From Candidatus Bathyarchaeia archaeon (GTDB lineage: Archaea; Thermoproteota; Bathyarchaeia; Bathyarchaeales; Bathycorpusculaceae): a stretch of DNA of 64,000 nt. Both the position numbers and the translations under genes were made by a program. The stretch covers positions 192,001 through 256,000 of the forward strand of contig JAVYWL010000002.1 in assembly GCA_038727135.1 (NCBI GenBank). The letters run 5' to 3'. The notes under the pieces are model-generated. The model was not told the DNA's origin and ran no database searches. It saw nothing but the letters and a program-made list of their open reading frames with translations. Below, piece after piece: positions 1-11,746 of this stretch; positions within the stretch are counted from its first letter, which is position 1; each line of letters starts with the position of its first letter.

Positions 1-900
1 GGCGATATCATCGCCAAGTATGGTCTCCCCAGGAAGCATGGCGGTTGCTGTTTTGCCACAAGCGCTTGGAAAGGCTCCAGCAAAATACGTTTTCCTACCG
101 CCAGGTCCATGCACTCCCATAATCATCATATGCTCTGCAAGCCATCCCTCCTGATTCGCCTTCCTTATAGCAAGGCGAAAGGCCAATTTTTTAAAGCCTA
201 CAGAGTTCCCAGCATATTGGGTGTTAACACTGTAGATTATGTCCTCAGTGTAGTCAATGTAAACCCTTTTCTTGTCATGGTCCACGCTAACCATGTTTTC
301 ATTAAGTCTTCCGCTGGAATGCAGCACCCTTAAAAAGTGAGTGTCAGGATAAGCCTTAGTGAAAGCTTCATAGCCAGGTCTAAAAAGGAGGTATTCTGAA
401 TGGGCGACATACCACGAGTCTGTGCATTGCACGCCTAGAATAGTGAAGATAGAGTTTGGTGGACCAAGGCAGACAAAGCGGACAATCATCGTGCGCCCTT
501 TCATAGAATCTTTTAACAGGCTTTTTACTTCGGCTAATCCTTCATCCCTATCAATCTGATTTAATGCCTTACTCAAGTAGTCCCCCTTTGGCACAAGATA
601 CTTGGTGGCTTCGCGGTCCCTTCCCTGGTCATAGGGTCCATCAAAATGAACGGTGTGTCCAGGCATTGCAAGGGGTTTCTCTTCGCCAGTTTCTATCGCC
701 ATCCGCCTAATGTAGGCTATATCCTCAGGCGAATCATCGGAAACAAAAATCTTTTCGGGGTTACAGAGCTCCGCAGCCTCAACAATAAACTGGTGAACCC
801 TTGGAACTTTTATGGCACGGAGCTTCGCGTAATCCCCGTCGCTCAATTTTGGACTTATAGCTTGGAGACATCGGCTCACTTCGTCGATGATTTGCTGCAT
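1..900 (-). CDS. pckG: Phosphoenolpyruvate carboxykinase (GTP), 5' part; runs off the window edge
   Basis: Not in the ORF track. Manual translation from ATG at 900: MQQIIDEVSR...YSVNTQYAGNSVGFKKLAFR...GWLAEHM...FAGAFPSACGKT...GDDIA, i.e. the PEPCK-GTP kinase-1a (FPSACGKT) and GDDIA motifs. Confidence 0.93.
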   Translation of the reverse strand, partial: MQQIIDEVSRCLQAISPKLSDGDYAKLRAIKVPRVHQFIVEAAELCNPEKIFVSDDSPEDIAYIRRMAIETGEEKPLAMPGHTVHFDGPYDQGRDREATKYLVPKGDYLSKALNQIDRDEGLAEVKSLLKDSMKGRTMIVRFVCLGPPNSIFTILGVQCTDSWYVAHSEYLLFRPGYEAFTKAYPDTHFLRVLHSSGRLNENMVSVDHDKKRVYIDYTEDIIYSVNTQYAGNSVGFKKLAFRLAIRKANQEGWLAEHMMIMGVHGPGGRKTYFAGAFPSACGKTATAMLPGETILGDDIA

Positions 901-1019
901 TTTGGATTCCTTAACGCATTAAACAGTGGCGTATATAAATTTTCAGCTAGATTAACGGTAAAGAAGGCAAAAAATAATCAACTTTCTTTTATTTTAATGT
1001 AAAAATTACAAAAATATTT

Positions 1020-2315
1020 CTAATTCAATAATGAGCCTTCAAGATAAGTTGAGGAGGCATCATAAATTTTAACATGCAAAACTTTGCCCAACAAGTCCCC
1101 GGCGTTTTCCACCACTATTGGCTTGTAGGCGAAGTTTCTACCCATCCACGAACCAGAAACTTTTCCATGCTCATCTATTAGGACTTCGCCCTCCCAGCCA
1201 ACCCATTCACGATTCCTCTCCAAAGCAATTTTCATTGCTAAACTGCTTAGCAAGGCGCTTCTCCGCTTTATCTCTGGAAATGGAACAGCACCTCGCATGG
1301 CTGCCGCTGGCGTTCTCGGTCTGGCAAAAAACTTCGATATATTAACTATGTCGGGCTTAACATCCTCTATCAACTGCATGGTTTTTCCAAAGGCTTTTTC
1401 ATCTTCGCCTGGAAAGCCGCAGATTACGTCTGTCGCTATCGTTATTTTTGGAAAGGCTTCTCTAAAGGCGTTTACAATCCTTTTAAAGTCAGCCACCGTG
1501 TAAAAGCGGCGCATTTTCTCTAGAACATAGTCGTCTCCGCTTTGGACAGGCAAGTGGACAAATTTGAAGACCTTCTCGCTTTTGTAGGCTTCAATCAAGT
1601 TTTCTAGAATGCCCATAGCCATATTCGGGGTCATCATTCCAACCCGCACTTTGAAGTCTCCCTCGACCGCGCACACAGCCTCAACAAGCTCAGCCAAGTT
1701 TGTGCCCATATCTCTCCCATAGCACGCGGTGTCCTGTGAAGTAAGCCAAAACTCCCGTACGCCATCAGCCAAGTCGGCTTTAACCCGTCCCACAATTTCT
1801 CCTATGCTGTAACTTCTTAGGCGCCCTCTTGCAAAGACAACACAACAGTAGGCGCATGAACCCAAACAGCCATAGCTTATTGGGATTATGCCTACAACAG
1901 GGTTTAGGCGAATCCTCGGAAGGTTTAGGCTTGGTTTAGCCCTATCTGCATTTTCTAAAGCTACAACCTTCTCGCCCCTCAAAACATCATTAACTATATC
2001 AACTATTTTTTCGCCTAAAGCTGGACCGGCAACACCGTCAAAATGTACTTCGCGGCATAGCCTATCAAAGTTGATTAGAGGTAGACAACCCACAACAAGA
2101 AGCTTCTTTCCCTTTGGCACTTTTTTCAAAATGTCGATCATGCGGTTTTCTGTTGGACCCTTGACAGCACAAGTGTTGTAAATGACTATTTCAGCATCAG
2201 CCACGCTATCGACAAGTTTGAACCCAGCCTTCGCTAGGCAACCAGCCATAACTTCGCCGTCAGCCAAATTTGTCGAACAACCGAAGCTCCTAAGGAACAC
2301 TCTTGCGGCTTCCAT
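1020..2315 (-). CDS. tRNA t6A37 methylthiotransferase (archaeal MtaB/CDKAL1 type radical SAM)
   Basis: UPF0004 N-terminus (FGCSTN, NTCAVK, VGC), CxxxCxxC (CLGSCAYC), C-terminal TRAM-like region. Confidence 0.9.
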   Translation of the reverse strand: MEAARVFLRSFGCSTNLADGEVMAGCLAKAGFKLVDSVADAEIVIYNTCAVKGPTENRMIDILKKVPKGKKLLVVGCLPLINFDRLCREVHFDGVAGPALGEKIVDIVNDVLRGEKVVALENADRAKPSLNLPRIRLNPVVGIIPISYGCLGSCAYCCVVFARGRLRSYSIGEIVGRVKADLADGVREFWLTSQDTACYGRDMGTNLAELVEAVCAVEGDFKVRVGMMTPNMAMGILENLIEAYKSEKVFKFVHLPVQSGDDYVLEKMRRFYTVADFKRIVNAFREAFPKITIATDVICGFPGEDEKAFGKTMQLIEDVKPDIVNISKFFARPRTPAAAMRGAVPFPEIKRRSALLSSLAMKIALERNREWVGWEGEVLIDEHGKVSGSWMGRNFAYKPIVVENAGDLLGKVLHVKIYDASSTYLEGSLLN

Positions 2316-2427
2316 GGCAATACGTAAAATGCTTTAACAAGGAATAAAAACCTAGAGGTTCGCCACTAGGCGTATTTACAAGTTTCTGAAACAGCTATAG
2401 CATAATTTTTATAAAGAAAAGAACGAG

Positions 2428-2450
2428 CATATTTAAAACATATTTAAAAC
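2428..2450 (+). promoter_or_regulatory. Tandem 11-bp repeat (CATATTTAAAA x2) with TATA-like cores upstream of cdrS-ftsZ
   Basis: Read directly at 2428-2438 and 2439-2449 in the divergent intergenic region. Confidence 0.5.
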
Positions 2451-2511
2451 GTATTATGTAAAAGTATAGGTCTGAAGCTCGTTTTCTCGCTCACCGAAGG
2501 GGGAATTTAAA

Positions 2512-2667
2512 ATGAAGTTAATCACGCTCTATCTTCCCGAACCATACATTGAGGCGTTAGACCAGCTTGTGAATGAGAGGTTTTATCCAAACAGGGCTGA
2601 AGCTATTCGTGTGGCTATCCGCGACTTGATTAACAATGAGGTTTGGCGTAGAAAGAGGGTTGGTTAG
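2512..2667 (+). CDS. cdrS: Ribbon-helix-helix (CopG/Arc) regulator, CdrS-like, 51 aa
   Basis: Below the ORF-track cutoff: MKLITLYLPEPYIEALDQLVNERFYPNRAEAIRVAIRDLINNEVWRRKRVG. Its stop abuts the ftsZ ATG; cdrS-ftsZ2 synteny is known in archaea. Confidence 0.85.
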   Translation: MKLITLYLPEPYIEALDQLVNERFYPNRAEAIRVAIRDLINNEVWRRKRVG

Positions 2668-3783
2668 ATGCAGCCAGCTAGCCAGCAGCAGACCTTCAAA
2701 TATTCTTGGCAGAACACTTTCCCAGAGGAAATTCGTCCCCCAAGCTTCTGCCGAATGCTTGTTTTAGGCGTTGGTGGGGCCGGGAATAATACTGTTACAA
2801 GGCTTATGGAGATGGGCATAGTTGGGGCTGAATGCATAGCCATAAACACCGACGCCCTTCACCTCAACATTTCAAAGGCTCACAGAAAAATCTTGATAGG
2901 CGAAAAGCTTACGAAGGGCTTGGGTGTTGGCGGAGACCCACAACTTGGAAGAGCCGCCATCGAAGAGTCAAGGAAAAAGATTGAAGAAATGCTCAGTGGG
3001 GCGGATATAGTCTTTATAACCGCCGGCCTTGGAGGCGGAACTGGAACAGGTGCAGCGCCAGTTATAGCCGAAATAGCCAAGAAGAAGGGTGCTTTAACGG
3101 TTGGTGTTGTGACAACGCCTTTCCGAATTGAGAAGGGACGCATAGAATATGCAGCTCAAGCTTTGACTGAGTTGCGGAGACACTGCGACACAGTTGTTGT
3201 AATAGACAATAATAAGCTGATTCACTTGGCTCCAAACCTGCCCATAAATGAGGCTTTCAAGGTTGCAGACCAAGTTTTAGCAAACATGATTAAGGGCATT
3301 GTGGAAACCATTTCAGCTCCAAGCTTAATAAACCTGGACTTTGCAGACTTCAAAACCATTGTTAAGCGGGGAGGCTTAGCCGTCATAGGCGTAGGCGAAT
3401 CAGACGCCCCAAACCGCGCTGAAGAGGCTGTGCGAAACGCCTTAAGAAACCCGCTCCTCGACGTGGACTATGCAGGCGCGAAGGGCGCCCTAATCCATGT
3501 TTCAGGAGACGCCCAAATGACAATTGAGGAGGCAAACCGCGTTGGAGAAATAGTCACAGAAATGATGGACGACGACGCACTGGTCATCTGGGGAGCAAGA
3601 GTAAACCCCGAAATGGACGGAAAGCTAAAAGTAACCCTCGTGCTAACAGGAGTGAATTCGCCATACACCCCAAGCGGACTTGGAGCAATAGCACCACAAC
3701 TCTTCAACCTAGAGCCATATGCCGAACCAGAAAAACCCCTAGGCATAAAACTGAATTTGTACCAAATGGAACAAGACTCATAA
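2668..3783 (+). CDS. ftsZ: Cell division protein FtsZ (FtsZ2-like by synteny)
   Basis: GVGGAGNN, tubulin signature GGGTGTG, INLDFAD. Confidence 0.97.
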   Translation: MQPASQQQTFKYSWQNTFPEEIRPPSFCRMLVLGVGGAGNNTVTRLMEMGIVGAECIAINTDALHLNISKAHRKILIGEKLTKGLGVGGDPQLGRAAIEESRKKIEEMLSGADIVFITAGLGGGTGTGAAPVIAEIAKKKGALTVGVVTTPFRIEKGRIEYAAQALTELRRHCDTVVVIDNNKLIHLAPNLPINEAFKVADQVLANMIKGIVETISAPSLINLDFADFKTIVKRGGLAVIGVGESDAPNRAEEAVRNALRNPLLDVDYAGAKGALIHVSGDAQMTIEEANRVGEIVTEMMDDDALVIWGARVNPEMDGKLKVTLVLTGVNSPYTPSGLGAIAPQLFNLEPYAEPEKPLGIKLNLYQMEQDS

Positions 3784-3816
3784 GTTCCTTCAACATCCCC
3801 CATTTTATACAAACAA

Positions 3817-3844
3817 CTTTCTGTTAGGAGACACTAACAGAACC
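3817..3844. repeat. 28-bp 11-6-11 inverted repeat (dif/Xer-like site A): CTTTCTGTTAG-GAGACA-CTAACAGAACC
   Basis: Perfect 9-bp arms TTCTGTTAG/CTAACAGAA around a 6-bp spacer. Confidence 0.6.
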
Positions 3845-3945
3845 CACTGCTTACACGATTGTAAATGGCATTGGAACCAAAAACATCGTTCTTTTCAACA
3901 CTATTCTCATTTAAGTAGGAGGGCTGGCGGCTTAAACATTCTTTT

Positions 3946-4827
3946 TCATACATGGTTCTCTGGGTAAAGCATGGTTAAAAGGTGGCCTATTGCTATTTCA
4001 ACATCCTGAACATATTTATTCGCTTCTTGAGCACTTATGTCTATCTCCTTTGGTCGATGGATGAGTTTGTTCCTTATCTCGGCGCCTTTTTGAAGTTCCT
4101 TTAGCTTTGGAGATTTTTGTCCAGTAAAAGATTCTAGAATTGAACCGTATAGTTTATGTAGTGGGGGTGATGGGATCTCAATAAGCAATGCCTCTACTTC
4201 TGGCTTTTTTCTGATTAAGAACTCTTTAATGGCTAATTCTGCAGCAATTGTCGCCTCTATCCACTTGTAACGAGGATTATCTTCATTTTTAGCTCTATGT
4301 AAGTGCCGTAATGCCAAAAATGGCTGAAAATCATTATCCAAATACTCTTGGATGATTTTAGCATTATCTTCATTTAAAGGTGTAACGTTTTTTATGTCTA
4401 CAACTAATTTTGTTAACATGGGAAAATGTTTCCATTCCAACCTGTCTTTTGACCAGTAATAACCCTTAACTGAAAACAGATTCTCATCCAACTCTGTTTG
4501 ATTTAAGCAGTATTTAATTAGATTAAGCACTTTTCGAGTCGCTAAAGAAATAATGGATGTTATCTCTGAAATTTGGGTTTGAATATCTTCAGGCAATTTT
4601 CTTATGTCAACAGAATCTCTATTTAGAACCTCCCTTAGATCTTCAGAGATATCAGCCTCATGAAAAGATTCAATTATCTTCTCTGTTGGATTTATTTCAA
4701 CTATAACTGGCGGTTTATCTTTTAGAGCTACTTTAAACCTAATTCTGTTTTCCTTTAAGTTAGAAGCAATTTCGCCAATTAAGGCATAACAACCTTTGAT
4801 ATAAATAAACATAGGCCTATAGTTCAA
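3946..4827 (-). CDS. Hypothetical protein with C-terminal HEPN-like RxxxxH motif (possible RNase/defence effector); start uncertain
   Basis: Helical C-terminal domain with AAELAIKE and IRNKLIHR; visibly AT-richer than flanking genes. Confidence 0.55.
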   Translation of the reverse strand: MNYRPMFIYIKGCYALIGEIASNLKENRIRFKVALKDKPPVIVEINPTEKIIESFHEADISEDLREVLNRDSVDIRKLPEDIQTQISEITSIISLATRKVLNLIKYCLNQTELDENLFSVKGYYWSKDRLEWKHFPMLTKLVVDIKNVTPLNEDNAKIIQEYLDNDFQPFLALRHLHRAKNEDNPRYKWIEATIAAELAIKEFLIRKKPEVEALLIEIPSPPLHKLYGSILESFTGQKSPKLKELQKGAEIRNKLIHRPKEIDISAQEANKYVQDVEIAIGHLLTMLYPENHV

Positions 4828-4906
4828 GTATTTTAGTGTAGATGATATTAAAAGTATTGGAAGCGTGCCAAAAAACTCGCATTGGAGATTTACATGATTT
4901 TATGTA

Positions 4907-4934
4907 TTTTCTGTTAGTAACGTCTAATCGAAGT
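4907..4934. repeat. 28-bp 11-6-11 imperfect inverted repeat (dif/Xer-like site B): TTTTCTGTTAG-TAACGT-CTAATCGAAGT
   Basis: Shares TTTCTGTTAG left arm, 6-bp spacer length and CTAA..GAA right arm with site A. Confidence 0.55.
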
Positions 4935-5044
4935 AATTTTCATAATAGCGAGATTTCCACAGGAATAGGCTTTTCTTGGGCAAATGGTTTATGTAGGGAA
5001 ACTTCCAGCATTCACGTAGATGAATATGGAAGGTTAAGGGTGAA

Positions 5045-5866
5045 ATGCCTTTAGGTGTAGGGCTTATTGGATGCGGCGCCATTGGGACGGTGCTGGCGCA
5101 AGCCATAGATAGGGGGCAAGCTGGAGACACGTGCCTACTCATGGTTTTTGACAGGAATATTGAAAGAGCTGAAAATTTGGTGCAAAGGTTGAAAAGCAAG
5201 CCTAGAGTCGCAAAAAGCTTTAAGGAGCTTCTAGAATGCGATGATGTTAAGCTTGTTGTTGAGGCTGCCTCCCAAGAGGCTGTGAAAGCTTACGCCGTTG
5301 ACGTTCTGAAGGCTGGAAAAGACTTAATGATCATGAGTGTGGGCGCCCTAGTTGATTCTGGACTGCTAAGTGAAATCAGCCGAACCGCCAGGGAAAACGG
5401 AGGGAAAGTCTATATTCCATCTGGCGCTGTAGCTGGACTGGACGGTTTGAAGGCTTCAGCAATAGGTAAAATTGAAAGCGTAACCCTAACAACGAGAAAG
5501 CCTGTTGAAGGCTTAATGGACAACCCATATTTCATGGAGAAGACCGGCGGAAAGGTTGAAAAGTCAACACTAGTATATGAGGGGCCAGCCAGAGAGGCGT
5601 GCAGGCTTTTTCCAGCTAATGTTAATGTGGCGGCAACCCTCAGCTTGGCTGGCATAGGCGCTGAAAAAACGGTTGTGCGGGTTGTGGCTGACCCAACTAT
5701 CAGTCGAAACATCCACGAGATTGAAGTTAAGGGTGATTTTGGTGAGTTGCGGGTTCATGTAGAAAATGTGCCTTCTGCCGAAAATCCAAAAACAAGTTTT
5801 TTGGCGGCTCTTTCAGCCATCGCAACATTGAAGAGGTTAACAGAATCCATCGTTGTTGGAGCATGA
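5045..5866 (+). CDS. nadX: L-aspartate dehydrogenase
   Basis: GCGAIG Rossmann motif, VVEAAS, SGAVAGLDG, FPANVNVAA, NIHEI, NPKTS. Confidence 0.93.
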   Translation: MPLGVGLIGCGAIGTVLAQAIDRGQAGDTCLLMVFDRNIERAENLVQRLKSKPRVAKSFKELLECDDVKLVVEAASQEAVKAYAVDVLKAGKDLMIMSVGALVDSGLLSEISRTARENGGKVYIPSGAVAGLDGLKASAIGKIESVTLTTRKPVEGLMDNPYFMEKTGGKVEKSTLVYEGPAREACRLFPANVNVAATLSLAGIGAEKTVVRVVADPTISRNIHEIEVKGDFGELRVHVENVPSAENPKTSFLAALSAIATLKRLTESIVVGA

Positions 5867-6532: not shown

Positions 6533-8227
6533 TCACTTCGCCATTGCCTTTCTAACTTTCTCCAACATTTCGTCAAGCTTTTTCTCGTCAGCCTCTATTT
6601 TGCGGAAAAGCGGCTTAGCCTCGGCTATTTTGTGACCCGCTGGCAAGGGCTTTAGGGCTTCATCCCACCTTTGCTCGTGAACGCTTCCCGGCAAGCTCAA
6701 GGTTTTCCAAAGCTCCTCCGCAGTGAAAGGAATTATTGGGGCTGAAGTTATGGCCAACGCCTTAACTAGTTGGGCAGCCACGTAAATCACGGTTGCGGCC
6801 TTGGCTCTGTCGCTTTTAATTAGGTTCCACGGCTCCTTATCGTTCAAATACTGGTTTCCAAGGCGGCTTATGCCTATAACGCCGTTTGCGGCTGACTGGA
6901 GTCGGCAAGCCTCAAAATCAGCGGCGATTTCGCTAACCTTCTCTTTTAGGGCTTCTAAAACCTTTTTGTCGTCAACGTCTAGTTGGGCTGGTTCTGGAAC
7001 TTGGCTGTTAAACTGCCTATTAATGAAGGATAATGTGCGGTGGATGAAGTTGCCGAAGGTATCGTTTAAGTCAGCATTAATTTTTTCAGCGAAGATTTCC
7101 CAAGAGAAGTTTGAGTCTTTTGTTTCCGGTCTTGTGGCTATTAGGAAATAGCGCCAATAATCAGCTGGGAAAAGCTCCAAGGCTTCGTCAATCCATATGC
7201 CTATCCTAAGGCTTTTTGAGGCTTTTTCGCCCTTAAACTGGAGGAATTCTGTGGCGGAAACGTTCCATGGCAGATTATAATCTTCATGGGAAGCCATCAA
7301 TAGTGCTGGAAAAATTATTGTGTGGAAGGGGATATTGTCCTTCCCAATGAAGTAGAGAGTCTTCGCATTTTTGTCGAACCAGTAGTCTTTCCATCCTTCG
7401 GGTTTTCCACGGTTTTTGAAATACTCTATTGTGGCTGAAACATAGCCTAAAACGGCTTCAACCCAAACATAAATGGTCTTTCCCTCAGCCTCTGGAAATG
7501 GCGCTGGAATCCCCCAGCTGACGTCCCTTGTCACGGCTCTGGGCTTTAATCCTTCCTTTATCAGGTTTAGGCTGAAGTTTTTGGCGTTTGTTGGCAACTG
7601 TCTATTTTCACTTATGTATTTGGCTAGTTTTTCCGAGAACTTTCCAAGGTCAAAGTACCAATGCTTTGTGGCTTTAATGACGGGTTTGCCCTTGCAGATC
7701 ACACAATACGGCTCGATGAGAGCTGTTGGCTCAAGGAGTCTTCCGCAGTTGTCGCATTGGTCTCCGCGGGCTGGTTCATGCCCACAGTAGGGGCATTTTC
7801 CCTCAACAAAGCGGTCTGGAAGAAAACGCTTACATTTTTCGCAGTAAAGCATCCCGGTTTCCTTCGTGAATATGTAGCCGTTCCTGTAAATCTTCATCAA
7901 ATGTTGTTGGACAAACTCCTTGTGCACCGGGCTTTCGGTCCGCGTGTAATTGTCGAAGGATATTCCCCACCTTTTGAAAAGTTCCACAACCCTAGCGTGA
8001 TTTTTATCTGTCAGCTCTTTCGGTTTTACACCAAGCCTTATGGCTTCAACCTCAATGGGGGTTCCATGCTCGTCGGAACCGCTCACCATGACAACATCTT
8101 CGCCCTTAAGCCTATAATAGCGAGCGACAACATCCGCTGAAAGAACAGAACCCACCAAGTTGCCAATGTGCGGCGTCACATTTATGTAGGGCCAAGCCGA
8201 GGTAACCAAAACCTTTCCGAGCGCCAC
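6533..8227 (-). CDS. metG: Methionyl-tRNA synthetase (short form, no C-terminal OB appendage)
   Basis: PYIN..PHIGN, GSDEHG, zinc knuckles, YVWVEA, GKDN, KASKS. Confidence 0.97.
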   Translation of the reverse strand: MALGKVLVTSAWPYINVTPHIGNLVGSVLSADVVARYYRLKGEDVVMVSGSDEHGTPIEVEAIRLGVKPKELTDKNHARVVELFKRWGISFDNYTRTESPVHKEFVQQHLMKIYRNGYIFTKETGMLYCEKCKRFLPDRFVEGKCPYCGHEPARGDQCDNCGRLLEPTALIEPYCVICKGKPVIKATKHWYFDLGKFSEKLAKYISENRQLPTNAKNFSLNLIKEGLKPRAVTRDVSWGIPAPFPEAEGKTIYVWVEAVLGYVSATIEYFKNRGKPEGWKDYWFDKNAKTLYFIGKDNIPFHTIIFPALLMASHEDYNLPWNVSATEFLQFKGEKASKSLRIGIWIDEALELFPADYWRYFLIATRPETKDSNFSWEIFAEKINADLNDTFGNFIHRTLSFINRQFNSQVPEPAQLDVDDKKVLEALKEKVSEIAADFEACRLQSAANGVIGISRLGNQYLNDKEPWNLIKSDRAKAATVIYVAAQLVKALAITSAPIIPFTAEELWKTLSLPGSVHEQRWDEALKPLPAGHKIAEAKPLFRKIEADEKKLDEMLEKVRKAMAK

Positions 8228-11185: not shown

Positions 11186-11746
11186 TTGCCTAAACGGGTT
11201 CTCCTAATAACTGGAAGCCCGGGCGTTGGAAAAACAACATTATTACTTAAGGTCGTTGAGACTTTAAGGGCTAGAGGCTACAGCGTCGGCGGAATGGTAA
11301 GCCGCGAGGTTCGCTCATGTGGAACACGCGTTGGCTTTGAAATTCTAGATTTAGCTGACAATAACAGACGTGGCTGGCTTGCCCATGTACAGCAGAAAAT
11401 AGGTCCACAAGTGGGCAAATACCGCGTAAATTTGGAAGACTTGAACGGTGTGGGTGTTGAGGCAATTTTAAGGGCGGTTAGGGAATGCGACGTCATAGCT
11501 ATAGACGAGATAGGCCCCATGGAGCTCTTCTCAGAAAATTTTAGGCAGGCAGTTGCAAAGGCTTTGGAAAGCGGCAAACTCGTTATAGCTGTTGTCCACT
11601 GGAAAGCACGCGACAAACTGATAGATGACGCAAAGGCTCGGAAGGACGCCGAAATATTCAGTGTCACCTTTGGAAATAGGGACGAACTGCACAAAGTGAT
11701 TGTGCAAAAAGCCGAAGAATTCTTAAAGGGGGGAGTGAGGCGCTAA
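11186..11746 (+). CDS. Nucleoside-triphosphatase (THEP1 family)
   Basis: GSPGVGKTT, RVGF, VGKYRV, IDEIGPMEL. Confidence 0.92.
   Translation: MPKRVLLITGSPGVGKTTLLLKVVETLRARGYSVGGMVSREVRSCGTRVGFEILDLADNNRRGWLAHVQQKIGPQVGKYRVNLEDLNGVGVEAILRAVRECDVIAIDEIGPMELFSENFRQAVAKALESGKLVIAVVHWKARDKLIDDAKARKDAEIFSVTFGNRDELHKVIVQKAEEFLKGGVRR

Follow-up and report, generated by a model that had tools for sequence, protein, structure and literature searches.

Small arm–spacer–arm palindromes bound replaceable cargo between ftsZ and nadX in a hot-spring Bathyarchaeia genome and probably belong to a dispersed tyrosine-recombinase cassette system

Accessory genes held between two short recombination sites, with the recombinase acting in trans, are familiar from pdif/dif modules and from IMEX elements, which exploit Xer. 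Other arrangements of enzyme and site include the XerS/difSL and XerH/difH pairs, single-copy housekeeping systems for dimer resolution; the attC sites of integrons, 57–141 bp long with two boxes; and engineered recombinase-mediated cassette exchange, which uses heterospecific lox or FRT variants. We know of no described natural system built like the last of these. Here we analyse two small palindromes, sites A and B, that bracket a single gene between ftsZ and nadX in a 64-kb stretch of DNA (the window, C2:192001–256000) of G000, the source genome, a hot-spring Bathyarchaeia metagenome-assembled genome (MAG) of 1.55 Mb in 7 contigs, 94.7% complete. On balance we judge that the palindromes are probably core-type tyrosine-recombinase target sites, bounding one slot of a dispersed cassette system that is not XerA/dif.

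In the descriptions of dif given by PMC2958812 and PMC8371274, the site consists of two inverted arms around a 6-bp spacer, and the latter source treats it as single-copy per chromosome. The palindromes share with Xer/dif the two inverted arms (9 bp here, ~11 in dif) and the 6-bp spacer, a layout that is common to many tyrosine-recombinase core sites and is therefore not diagnostic of dif. The features of the locus are as follows, in window positions (used throughout where no contig is named).

2668–3783, plus strand: ftsZ, the conserved left flank (Tubulin, E 1.3e-48; FtsZ_C, E 1.1e-32)
3817–3844, no strand assigned: site A, spacer class GAGACA, CTTTCTGTTAG-GAGACA-CTAACAGAACC
3946–4827, minus strand: cargo gene, an open reading frame (ORF) of 293 aa with low GC, the sole gene between the two sites
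4907–4934, no strand assigned: site B, spacer class TAACGT, TTTTCTGTTAG-TAACGT-CTAATCGAAGT
5045–5866, plus strand: nadX (aspartate dehydrogenase), the conserved right flank (Asp_DH_C, E 4.4e-38)

Both palindromes read exactly as an earlier note on this DNA had described them, and the ORFs, the Pfam matches and the GC profile bear out its lone low-GC gene (GC 0.31–0.34 over 4201–4950 versus 0.45–0.53 in the flanks). Its remark that no integrase lies nearby holds for the whole window, in which a PF00589 profile search returned no match; the nearest matches are at C2:150466–150933 and from C2:299807 onward. The 11-6-11 layout it gave survives in the 6-bp spacer and not in the arms, which are conserved over 9 bp (10–11 counting the T run) and not over a strict 11. 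The core of site A (3819–3842, TTCTGTTAG-GAGACA-CTAACAGAA) has 9-bp arms complementary at all positions and the full site begins 34 bp past the ftsZ stop; the core of site B (4909–4932, TTCTGTTAG-TAACGT-CTAATCGAA) has arms complementary at 7/9 positions. The two sites have the 10-bp left arm TTTCTGTTAG and the spacer length in common and differ in the spacer itself.

Homology to related genomes ends inside these sites. We searched the 3.4-kb stretch from ftsZ to nadX in 40 relatives, where ftsZ is 86–93% identical in 10 sister-genus genomes and nadX 80–88% in sister species. Left-flank homology stops at query 1332–1343 (window 3831–3842, within site A) and right-flank homology restarts at query 2410–2419 (window 4909–4918, within site B). 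The breaks lie inside the sites against seven sister species, and the interval between them holds unrelated cargo or none. From the end of ftsZ to the start of nadX it measures 1261 bp in G000, 1529 in G001, 3706 in G007, 3063 in G009 and 550 in G005; it is 140–145 bp in G011 and G012, with no site there, and short as well in G006, G017 and G018. Cargo differs among the species: G001 has three small membrane proteins, G007 and G004 have a secreted protein of 1052 aa, G009 one of 875 aa and G005 a protein of 109 aa, with still other genes in G002 and G003. The earlier note had predicted that an alignment of this interval would show alleles with no or different cargo, and its broader claim, that recombination-type sites bound replaceable cargo, agrees with breaks that fall in the sites and cargo that varies by species. 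Aligned by eye, the left junction keeps the left arm and a GAGACA-like spacer with the chromosome, while its right arm varies along with the cargo. The opposite junction has a chromosomal right arm, CTAATCGAAGT, and a left arm that goes with the cargo.

Statistics confined to the window are not significant (a loose pattern with ≤2 mismatches gives 5 matches versus a mean of 2.28, and 9/100 shuffles reach 5), so whole-genome and cross-genome counts were needed. Across G000 the arm-N6-CTAA pattern with ≤1 mismatch has 15 matches, 5 of them exact, versus 0 in the reversed control, and the full 9-6-9 palindrome with ≤3/18 mismatches has 8 distinct sites versus 0. Allowing A or G at arm position 9 yields 7 versus 1 in the control (≤2 mismatches) or 12 versus 4 (≤3); degenerate sites come in addition to these 12. 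Summed over 14 genomes, site matches number 319 versus 85 in the control. Scanning the genome and its relatives, as had been proposed, thus places the motif far above control and finds accessory genes flanked by it elsewhere too. One more match in the window, at 11351–11369 on the minus strand with 2 mismatches, is probably chance.

The sites have the arms TTCTGTTAR/YTAACAGAA in common, and across three genera their spacers fall into about six recurring classes: A (GAGACA), B (TAACGT), C (TCGCTG), D (TCATCG), E (GAGGTG) and F (TTGCAG). Read along one strand, they follow one another as B (ACGTTA), A (TGTCTC), D (TCATCG) and C (TCGCTG), in fixed order and orientation. They occur in two settings, as arrays beside a recombinase gene described below and as isolated pairs between housekeeping genes, and B–A, A–D and D–C pairs enclose different low-GC cargo. 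Examples of both settings, together with a further class-B spacer, are listed here; gene names at the loci of G064 (genus g32) and G042 (genus g29) were read from ORF translations, with no profile search.

G000 C2:316465/318828/319594: ordered array
G007 C1:157755/159419/160185: ordered array
G013 C2:9317/11460/12686: ordered array
G005 C3:63339–72979: ordered array
G064 C8: ordered array, B at 2959, A at 5752, D at 6810, C at 7917
G064 C11: D–C pair with a gene of 339 aa; ribosomal-protein genes lie on one side and an RNA-polymerase subunit gene on the other
G064 C14: A–D pair beside replication factor C genes
G064 C2: B–A pair
G000 C3:6610: class-B spacer

On C6 of G042 the classes and their order are the same as in genus g1. 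Class A, taken as an 18-mer with ≤1 mismatch, occurs in 35/401 genomes of the order, 21/117 genera and 3/12 families (f1 26/247 genomes, f8 1/1, f11 7/47), with ~72 matches versus 2 in the control over the 401 genomes; in the largest genus it is found in 0/89. As it spans three families and is patchy within them, the system, judged by these matches, is either old or horizontally spread.

Two observations on the arrays stand apart. A CRISPR array (G064 C8:7917–9067; 15 repeats of ~37 nt at ~76-nt spacing) starts ~18 bp past the class-C site that closes the B–A–D–C array, and cas1- and cas2-sized ORFs follow it; a repeat-like ORF pattern as in G064 appears on G042 C6 after 17545, judged from the ORFs with no repeat finder. 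Class-C and class-B sites also stand tail to tail, 20–28 bp apart, at G000 C3:6566–6633, G005 C1:1223924–1223999 and G010 C49:3111–3178, possibly as an empty junction, possibly as one composite site.

The two spacers of the window pair also bound a second locus of G000, C2:316465–318851.

C2:316465–316488, minus strand: class-B site, with the exact spacer of site B
C2:318828–318851, minus strand: class-A site, the same 24-mer as site A, also present in other species

This pair is inverted relative to the window pair and encloses 2.36 kb; when the two loci are compared by BLAST, only the 21–24-bp sites are alike. The cargo is KaiC (PF06745, E 1.9e-59) and a 103-aa gene in G000 and, between the same B and A sites of G007, unrelated genes of 221 aa and 156 aa. 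G013 also carries the KaiC cassette between its B and A sites, at 76% identity and beside different neighbours. From the first base of this site A onwards, C2:318827–321114 is 98.6% identical to G007 over 2.29 kb, up to the contig end, versus only 87% for ftsZ of the same two genomes. A similar step occurs on C7, where positions 410–5252 match G005 at 96.1% over 4.8 kb from inside a class-D site, with no homology left of the site, versus 85–88% for ftsZ and nadX. Homology breaks within 24-bp sites at three loci, and exchanged segments reach at least 4.8 kb. These alignments show the sites as the breakpoints of cargo replacement and of recent exchange between species.

The sites are tied to a particular recombinase. 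Genome-wide, G000 has 14 PF00589 matches, and it carries a 2.5-kb unit in two copies, 84% identical (C2:304954–307504 and C4:153296–155833), with the gene order TFIIB-zinc-ribbon-like protein (236 aa), tyrosine recombinase (304 aa in one copy, 309 aa in the other), class-E site and 159-aa protein. The class-E site is perfect (TTCTGTTAA-GAGGTG-TTAACAGAA) and lies 96–98 bp upstream of the recombinase start; the unit is bounded on one side by a tRNA-3′-like fragment and on the other by a class-B site at the stop of the 159-aa gene. Both recombinase genes are intact, one lying 110 kb from the window locus and the other on C4. A class-E site is found 96–111 bp upstream of the start in 7/7 close homologues having upstream sequence, and a small putative DNA-binding gene always adjoins it. 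Arrays lie near the class-E site in G005, G042, G064 and at the C2 end of G000; several kb of site-free genes can intervene. Gene neighbourhoods therefore show a physical linkage of the sites to one recombinase family. The 304-aa member scores 41.3 bits against PF00589 (cut-off 27.1), its residues H247, R250, W270, H273 and Y282, of the catalytic pattern R..HxxR..H/W..Y, are invariant in 20/20 aligned sequences, and on this evidence it looks competent. The family has 270 database relatives (E ≤1e-5), nearly all unnamed or labelled Bathyarchaeia integrases.

The closest solved structure to this recombinase is XerA of P. abyssi (4a8e, E 6e-10), and the sites have the two inverted arms and 6-bp spacer of dif; both facts lend something to the mechanism suggested in the earlier note, in which host XerA acts on dif-like sites and mobilises a dif module, as XerCD does with the pdif modules of bacterial plasmids. 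That mechanism did not hold up. None of the 13 matches of G000 to the XerA equivalog NF040815 reaches its cut-off of 220 bits (0/13; best 114 bits, with 52 and 51 bits for the 304-aa and 309-aa enzymes), and the same search passes the cut-off in 4/14 control genomes. Each genome has at least 12 sites, spread over about six spacer classes, versus a single-copy dif. The linked recombinase occurs in only 8/81 genomes of the order (8/14 in the genus, several as pseudogenes), often in at least two copies per genome and at contig ends. Being patchy, multi-copy and at contig ends, it has, by its distribution, the profile of a mobile-element integrase and not that of a housekeeping Xer, and we hold the involvement of XerA and dif to be exceedingly improbable. 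The likeness to pdif modules lies in arm–spacer–arm sites with 6-bp spacers that bracket accessory genes and in a module with no recombinase inside, which implies action in trans; the differences are an enzyme that is no housekeeping Xer and sites that are chromosomal and multi-class, with no likeness to a single chromosomal dif. XerS/difSL and XerH/difH likewise place the recombination site directly beside the recombinase gene, unlike which the gene here is patchy, multi-copy and associated with mobile elements.

Three further observations concern the tyrosine recombinases of these genomes. Adjoining the class-E recombinase unit is an 8.5-kb integrated element (G000 C2:296198–304781). It is bounded by an exact 47-bp direct repeat, into which the 3′ part of tRNA-His falls, and has a 313-aa integrase at its right end. 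Five G000 tyrosine recombinases of 388–444 aa carry an N-terminal zinc-binding domain of IS1/IS1595 type, an unusual fusion; several are near contig ends, and they lie as follows.

C4:537–1712: zinc-domain recombinase
C1:~4300–5530: zinc-domain recombinase
C3:30702–31889: zinc-domain recombinase
C2:~150300–151640: zinc-domain recombinase
C3:~95730–96900: zinc-domain recombinase

In G005, inverted copies of one unit (truncated recombinase, class-E site, 176-aa gene, class-B site) stand at both ends of a 1.24-Mb contig (C1:1–1350 and 1238398–1239743); since the assembly breaks at this end repeat, a large inversion polymorphism is possible.

Relatives of the enzyme extend the association of recombinase and site. 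Paralogues at 51–66% identity are widespread in Bathyarchaeia and adjoin tRNA 3′ fragments. Their site, TTAR-(CTGCAA, CAGCGA or CAGCAA)-CTAACAGAA, overlaps or directly trails the stop codon: TTAR-N6-YTAANNGAA is present within 70 nt past the gene end at 16/18 paralogue loci and 0/5 close ones, against a background of 0.0006 per 70 nt. A search for upstream 9-6-9 palindromes at the ~51–66%-identity loci gave none, and tRNA 3′-like fragments stand upstream instead. In another family, the 66-kb virus- or plasmid-like contig C14 of G075, which encodes ParB, PCNA, a helicase and glycosyltransferases, has 24 sites of the form TTCGGTTAA-N6-TTAACCGAA with covarying arms and a different spacer in each. 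Such sites also flank a recombinase of 326 aa that has 28% identity to the 304-aa enzyme, and the contig may be a site-delimited modular genome.

The G075 sites lie mostly 10–40 bp past stop codons, a placement that would suit transcript hairpins or terminators. The palindromes could in that case be these, or operators (for example of the RHH-like 159-aa protein), with cargo turning over by homologous recombination in the flanks; the position of site A, 34 bp from the end of ftsZ, and the small putative DNA-binding gene that invariably accompanies the class-E site point the same way. Such elements would not account for homology that breaks inside 24-bp sites at three loci, and an operator has no need of a few spacer classes conserved across genera. 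Nor do the sites keep a constant relation to gene direction (site B precedes the cargo here and follows it at the second locus), and an Rfam search of 3600–5150 found no family. We regard an operator, hairpin or terminator as very improbable. Two mobile-element mechanisms were also considered and rejected: transposon-like terminal inverted repeats (the cargo ends read CTAACAGAA...TTCTGTTAG), as there is no target duplication and the breakpoints lie at spacer edges, and a coupling-sequence mechanism like that of Tn916, as the spacers are conserved by class and not derived from the target.

The model we propose for the recombinase-site reading involves a Bathyarchaeia-specific integrase family whose sites would comprise two recombinase-binding arms of 9 bp each, with the crossover in the 6-bp spacer between them. 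Dimers of the recombinase would occupy the arms and cleave at the edges of the spacer. Incoming DNA of a relative, a virus or a plasmid carrying both site classes would then recombine, A with A and B with B, and the stretch between the sites would be replaced, on the pattern of engineered recombinase-mediated cassette exchange. The candidate for the enzyme acting in trans is the 304-aa recombinase. In the engineered case, too, a replaceable segment is flanked by sites with the same arms and differing spacers (incompatible in the laboratory design), and because the same pair is present at other loci, a double crossover would swap cargo. The difference is that the former is a laboratory design, and that restriction of recombination by the spacer is here only a proposal. 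Taken to its full extent, natural cassette exchange would mean that heterospecific classes with address-like spacers define numbered slots, lying in arrays beside integrase and CRISPR loci or between essential genes, and that any DNA with a matching pair could be swapped between species through two site-specific crossovers, without homologous flanks, so that accessory and defence genes and multi-kb segments could be exchanged in an ordered way. We put this forward tentatively, as a possibility somewhat short of an even chance.

Integrons offer the other template. They resemble the present system in having a tyrosine recombinase with a site beside its own gene, arrays of short accessory-gene cassettes between palindromic sites, a patchy distribution and low-GC variable cargo. 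In an integron-like scheme, circular single-site cassettes would insert through a crossover at a single edge of the spacer, need no homology between spacers and be resolved by replication; each junction site would be a hybrid, with left arm and spacer from the upstream unit and right arm from the downstream unit. The split of the ftsZ–nadX junction arms between chromosome and cargo is what this hybrid model expects, and the class-E site stands near the integrase gene in an attI-like position with arrays adjoining. The resemblance stops at several points. The sites here are simple 24-bp 9-6-9 cores without the double-box structure of attC (no attC model search was run). A few spacer classes are conserved across genera and keep one order and orientation, B–A–D–C, which would be unexpected for random insertion, and single slots are also dispersed among housekeeping genes. 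The cargo genes do not all point the same way. The IntI models TIGR02249 and NF011946 gave no match for the 304-aa and 309-aa enzymes, and the other G000 recombinases reach at most 73.8 bits versus a cut-off of 265. Ghaly et al. 2022 (PMC9668308) reported archaeal integrons by applying the standard criteria for IntI and attC, under which sites of the present type would go undetected.

The two models make opposite predictions for recombination of A with B in vitro. Logan contigs of hot-spring metagenomes served as population data, with four runs aligned to window 3000–5800. Contig depth is 100–450 on the flanks versus 0–5 over the cargo, figures that do not translate into allele frequencies, since 90% likeness draws related species onto the flanks and the data are contigs. 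At 3827, 3837, 4909 and 4925, positions at or inside the sites, the flanks run into other DNA. In run X5 one contig, of depth 14.2 and with 45 letters on its shorter side, passes straight from 3837 to 4925 and has no cargo, giving the left arm and spacer of A followed by the right arm of B, as an integron-like hybrid would. Joints from 3842/3843 to 4905–4909 were discarded for having only 19–26 letters on the shorter side; with no abutting A–B sites in assembled genomes, they are unusable.

A number of findings weigh against cassette exchange or against the recombinase-site reading as a whole. At 3827, in runs X1, X5 and X6, an inverted class-A spacer (TGTCTC) and then different DNA come after the ftsZ flank and left arm. 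Strict exchange between identical spacers does not predict an inverted spacer; a crossover at the spacer edge without a homology check fits better, and this allele, like the hybrid arms, is better explained by the integron-like scheme than by cassette exchange. Abutting A–B sites (0–8 nt apart) were sought in 14 assembled genomes and none was found. The link between recombinase and sites is one of adjacency only. No recombinase homologue (E ≤1e-20) was found in 6/13 sister-genus genomes, some with sites, these six being incomplete MAGs (62–94% complete), and within the 81-genome sample G042 and G031 have class-A sites and no recombinase homologue. Around 80 metagenome loci with homologues of the cargo we found 6 weak site candidates and no clear flanking pair. 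How a site pair would originate at a new chromosomal locus is left without explanation by the model. Last, the ftsZ–nadX sites have decayed in several species (G005 and G002 retain only left arm and spacer, and the site of G009 is degenerate), so this locus may be mostly fossil.

Between the two models we favour the double crossover between same-class sites, because it accounts for the conservation of the spacers, for their fixed order and for the swap of everything between two sites, multi-kb segments included; integron-like insertion we consider unlikely, though well short of negligible. Decay also raises the prospect that the whole system is an inactive relic, its sites being fossil att scars of old integrations with nothing moving today in G000. 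Besides the worn sites of G005, G002 and G009, recombinase pseudogenes in G002, G008, G011, G012 and G013 speak for this. Perfect arms at site A and the two intact recombinase genes of G000 speak against it, as do the 96–99%-identity segments shared between species that start at sites and the several alleles in metagenome contigs, and we think a relic distinctly improbable.

The 293-aa cargo protein has no match in Pfam or PADLOC. Its start is probably at 4812 rather than 4827, because homologues align from residue 6. We found 269 homologues (E ≤0.001), scattered over archaea and bacteria, and none in 300 other genomes of the order; the gene is horizontally acquired. One homologue is named 'Apea-like HEPN domain-containing' by one source, and an R252-x4-H257 motif is invariant in 14/14 aligned homologues. 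No Pfam HEPN model matches at E ≤0.1, and 1/14 members matches HEPN_RiboL-PSP at E 0.12. A structure model of low confidence (predicted local distance difference test, pLDDT, 59.8) has HEPN proteins as its top matches in the PDB (target template-modelling score 0.55–0.73), none at E ≤0.001. From this weak evidence the cargo is probably a protein with a C-terminal HEPN domain, for which a role as a defence or toxin-like RNase is plausible. Because its homologues at the 80 metagenome loci have no clear flanking site pair, it is, on the sequences at hand, a captured gene and no obligate passenger of the sites. The single-gene defence cassette suggested beforehand therefore stands in part: the cargo here is probably HEPN, while sister genomes carry surface or membrane proteins or several genes, and segments extend to 4.8 kb or more.

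Directly upstream of ftsZ lies one further gene, part of the left flank conserved in relatives and outside the module.

2512–2667, plus strand: RHH gene, 51 aa (RHH_1, E 1.8e-08)

A single base separates the end of this gene from the start codon of ftsZ, and the arrangement resembles the small regulator–ftsZ gene pair described in other archaea.

Our literature search turned up no account of sites like these, whether in Bathyarchaeia or in other archaea; it did not cover supplements, which might list related integrases. If the proposed reading is true, archaea would possess a gene-capture or exchange system invisible to standard integron or Xer searches, with very small sites of 24 bp and swappable slots between essential genes. 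The system appears to move DNA between species, since segments of 96–99% identity start exactly at sites. It could supply compact, naturally orthogonal recombination sites and a thermophile recombinase for genetic tools, and address-like spacers make a clear prediction that is open to in vitro test. For the small-genome Bathyarchaeia of hot springs, it would help explain how accessory and defence genes diversify.

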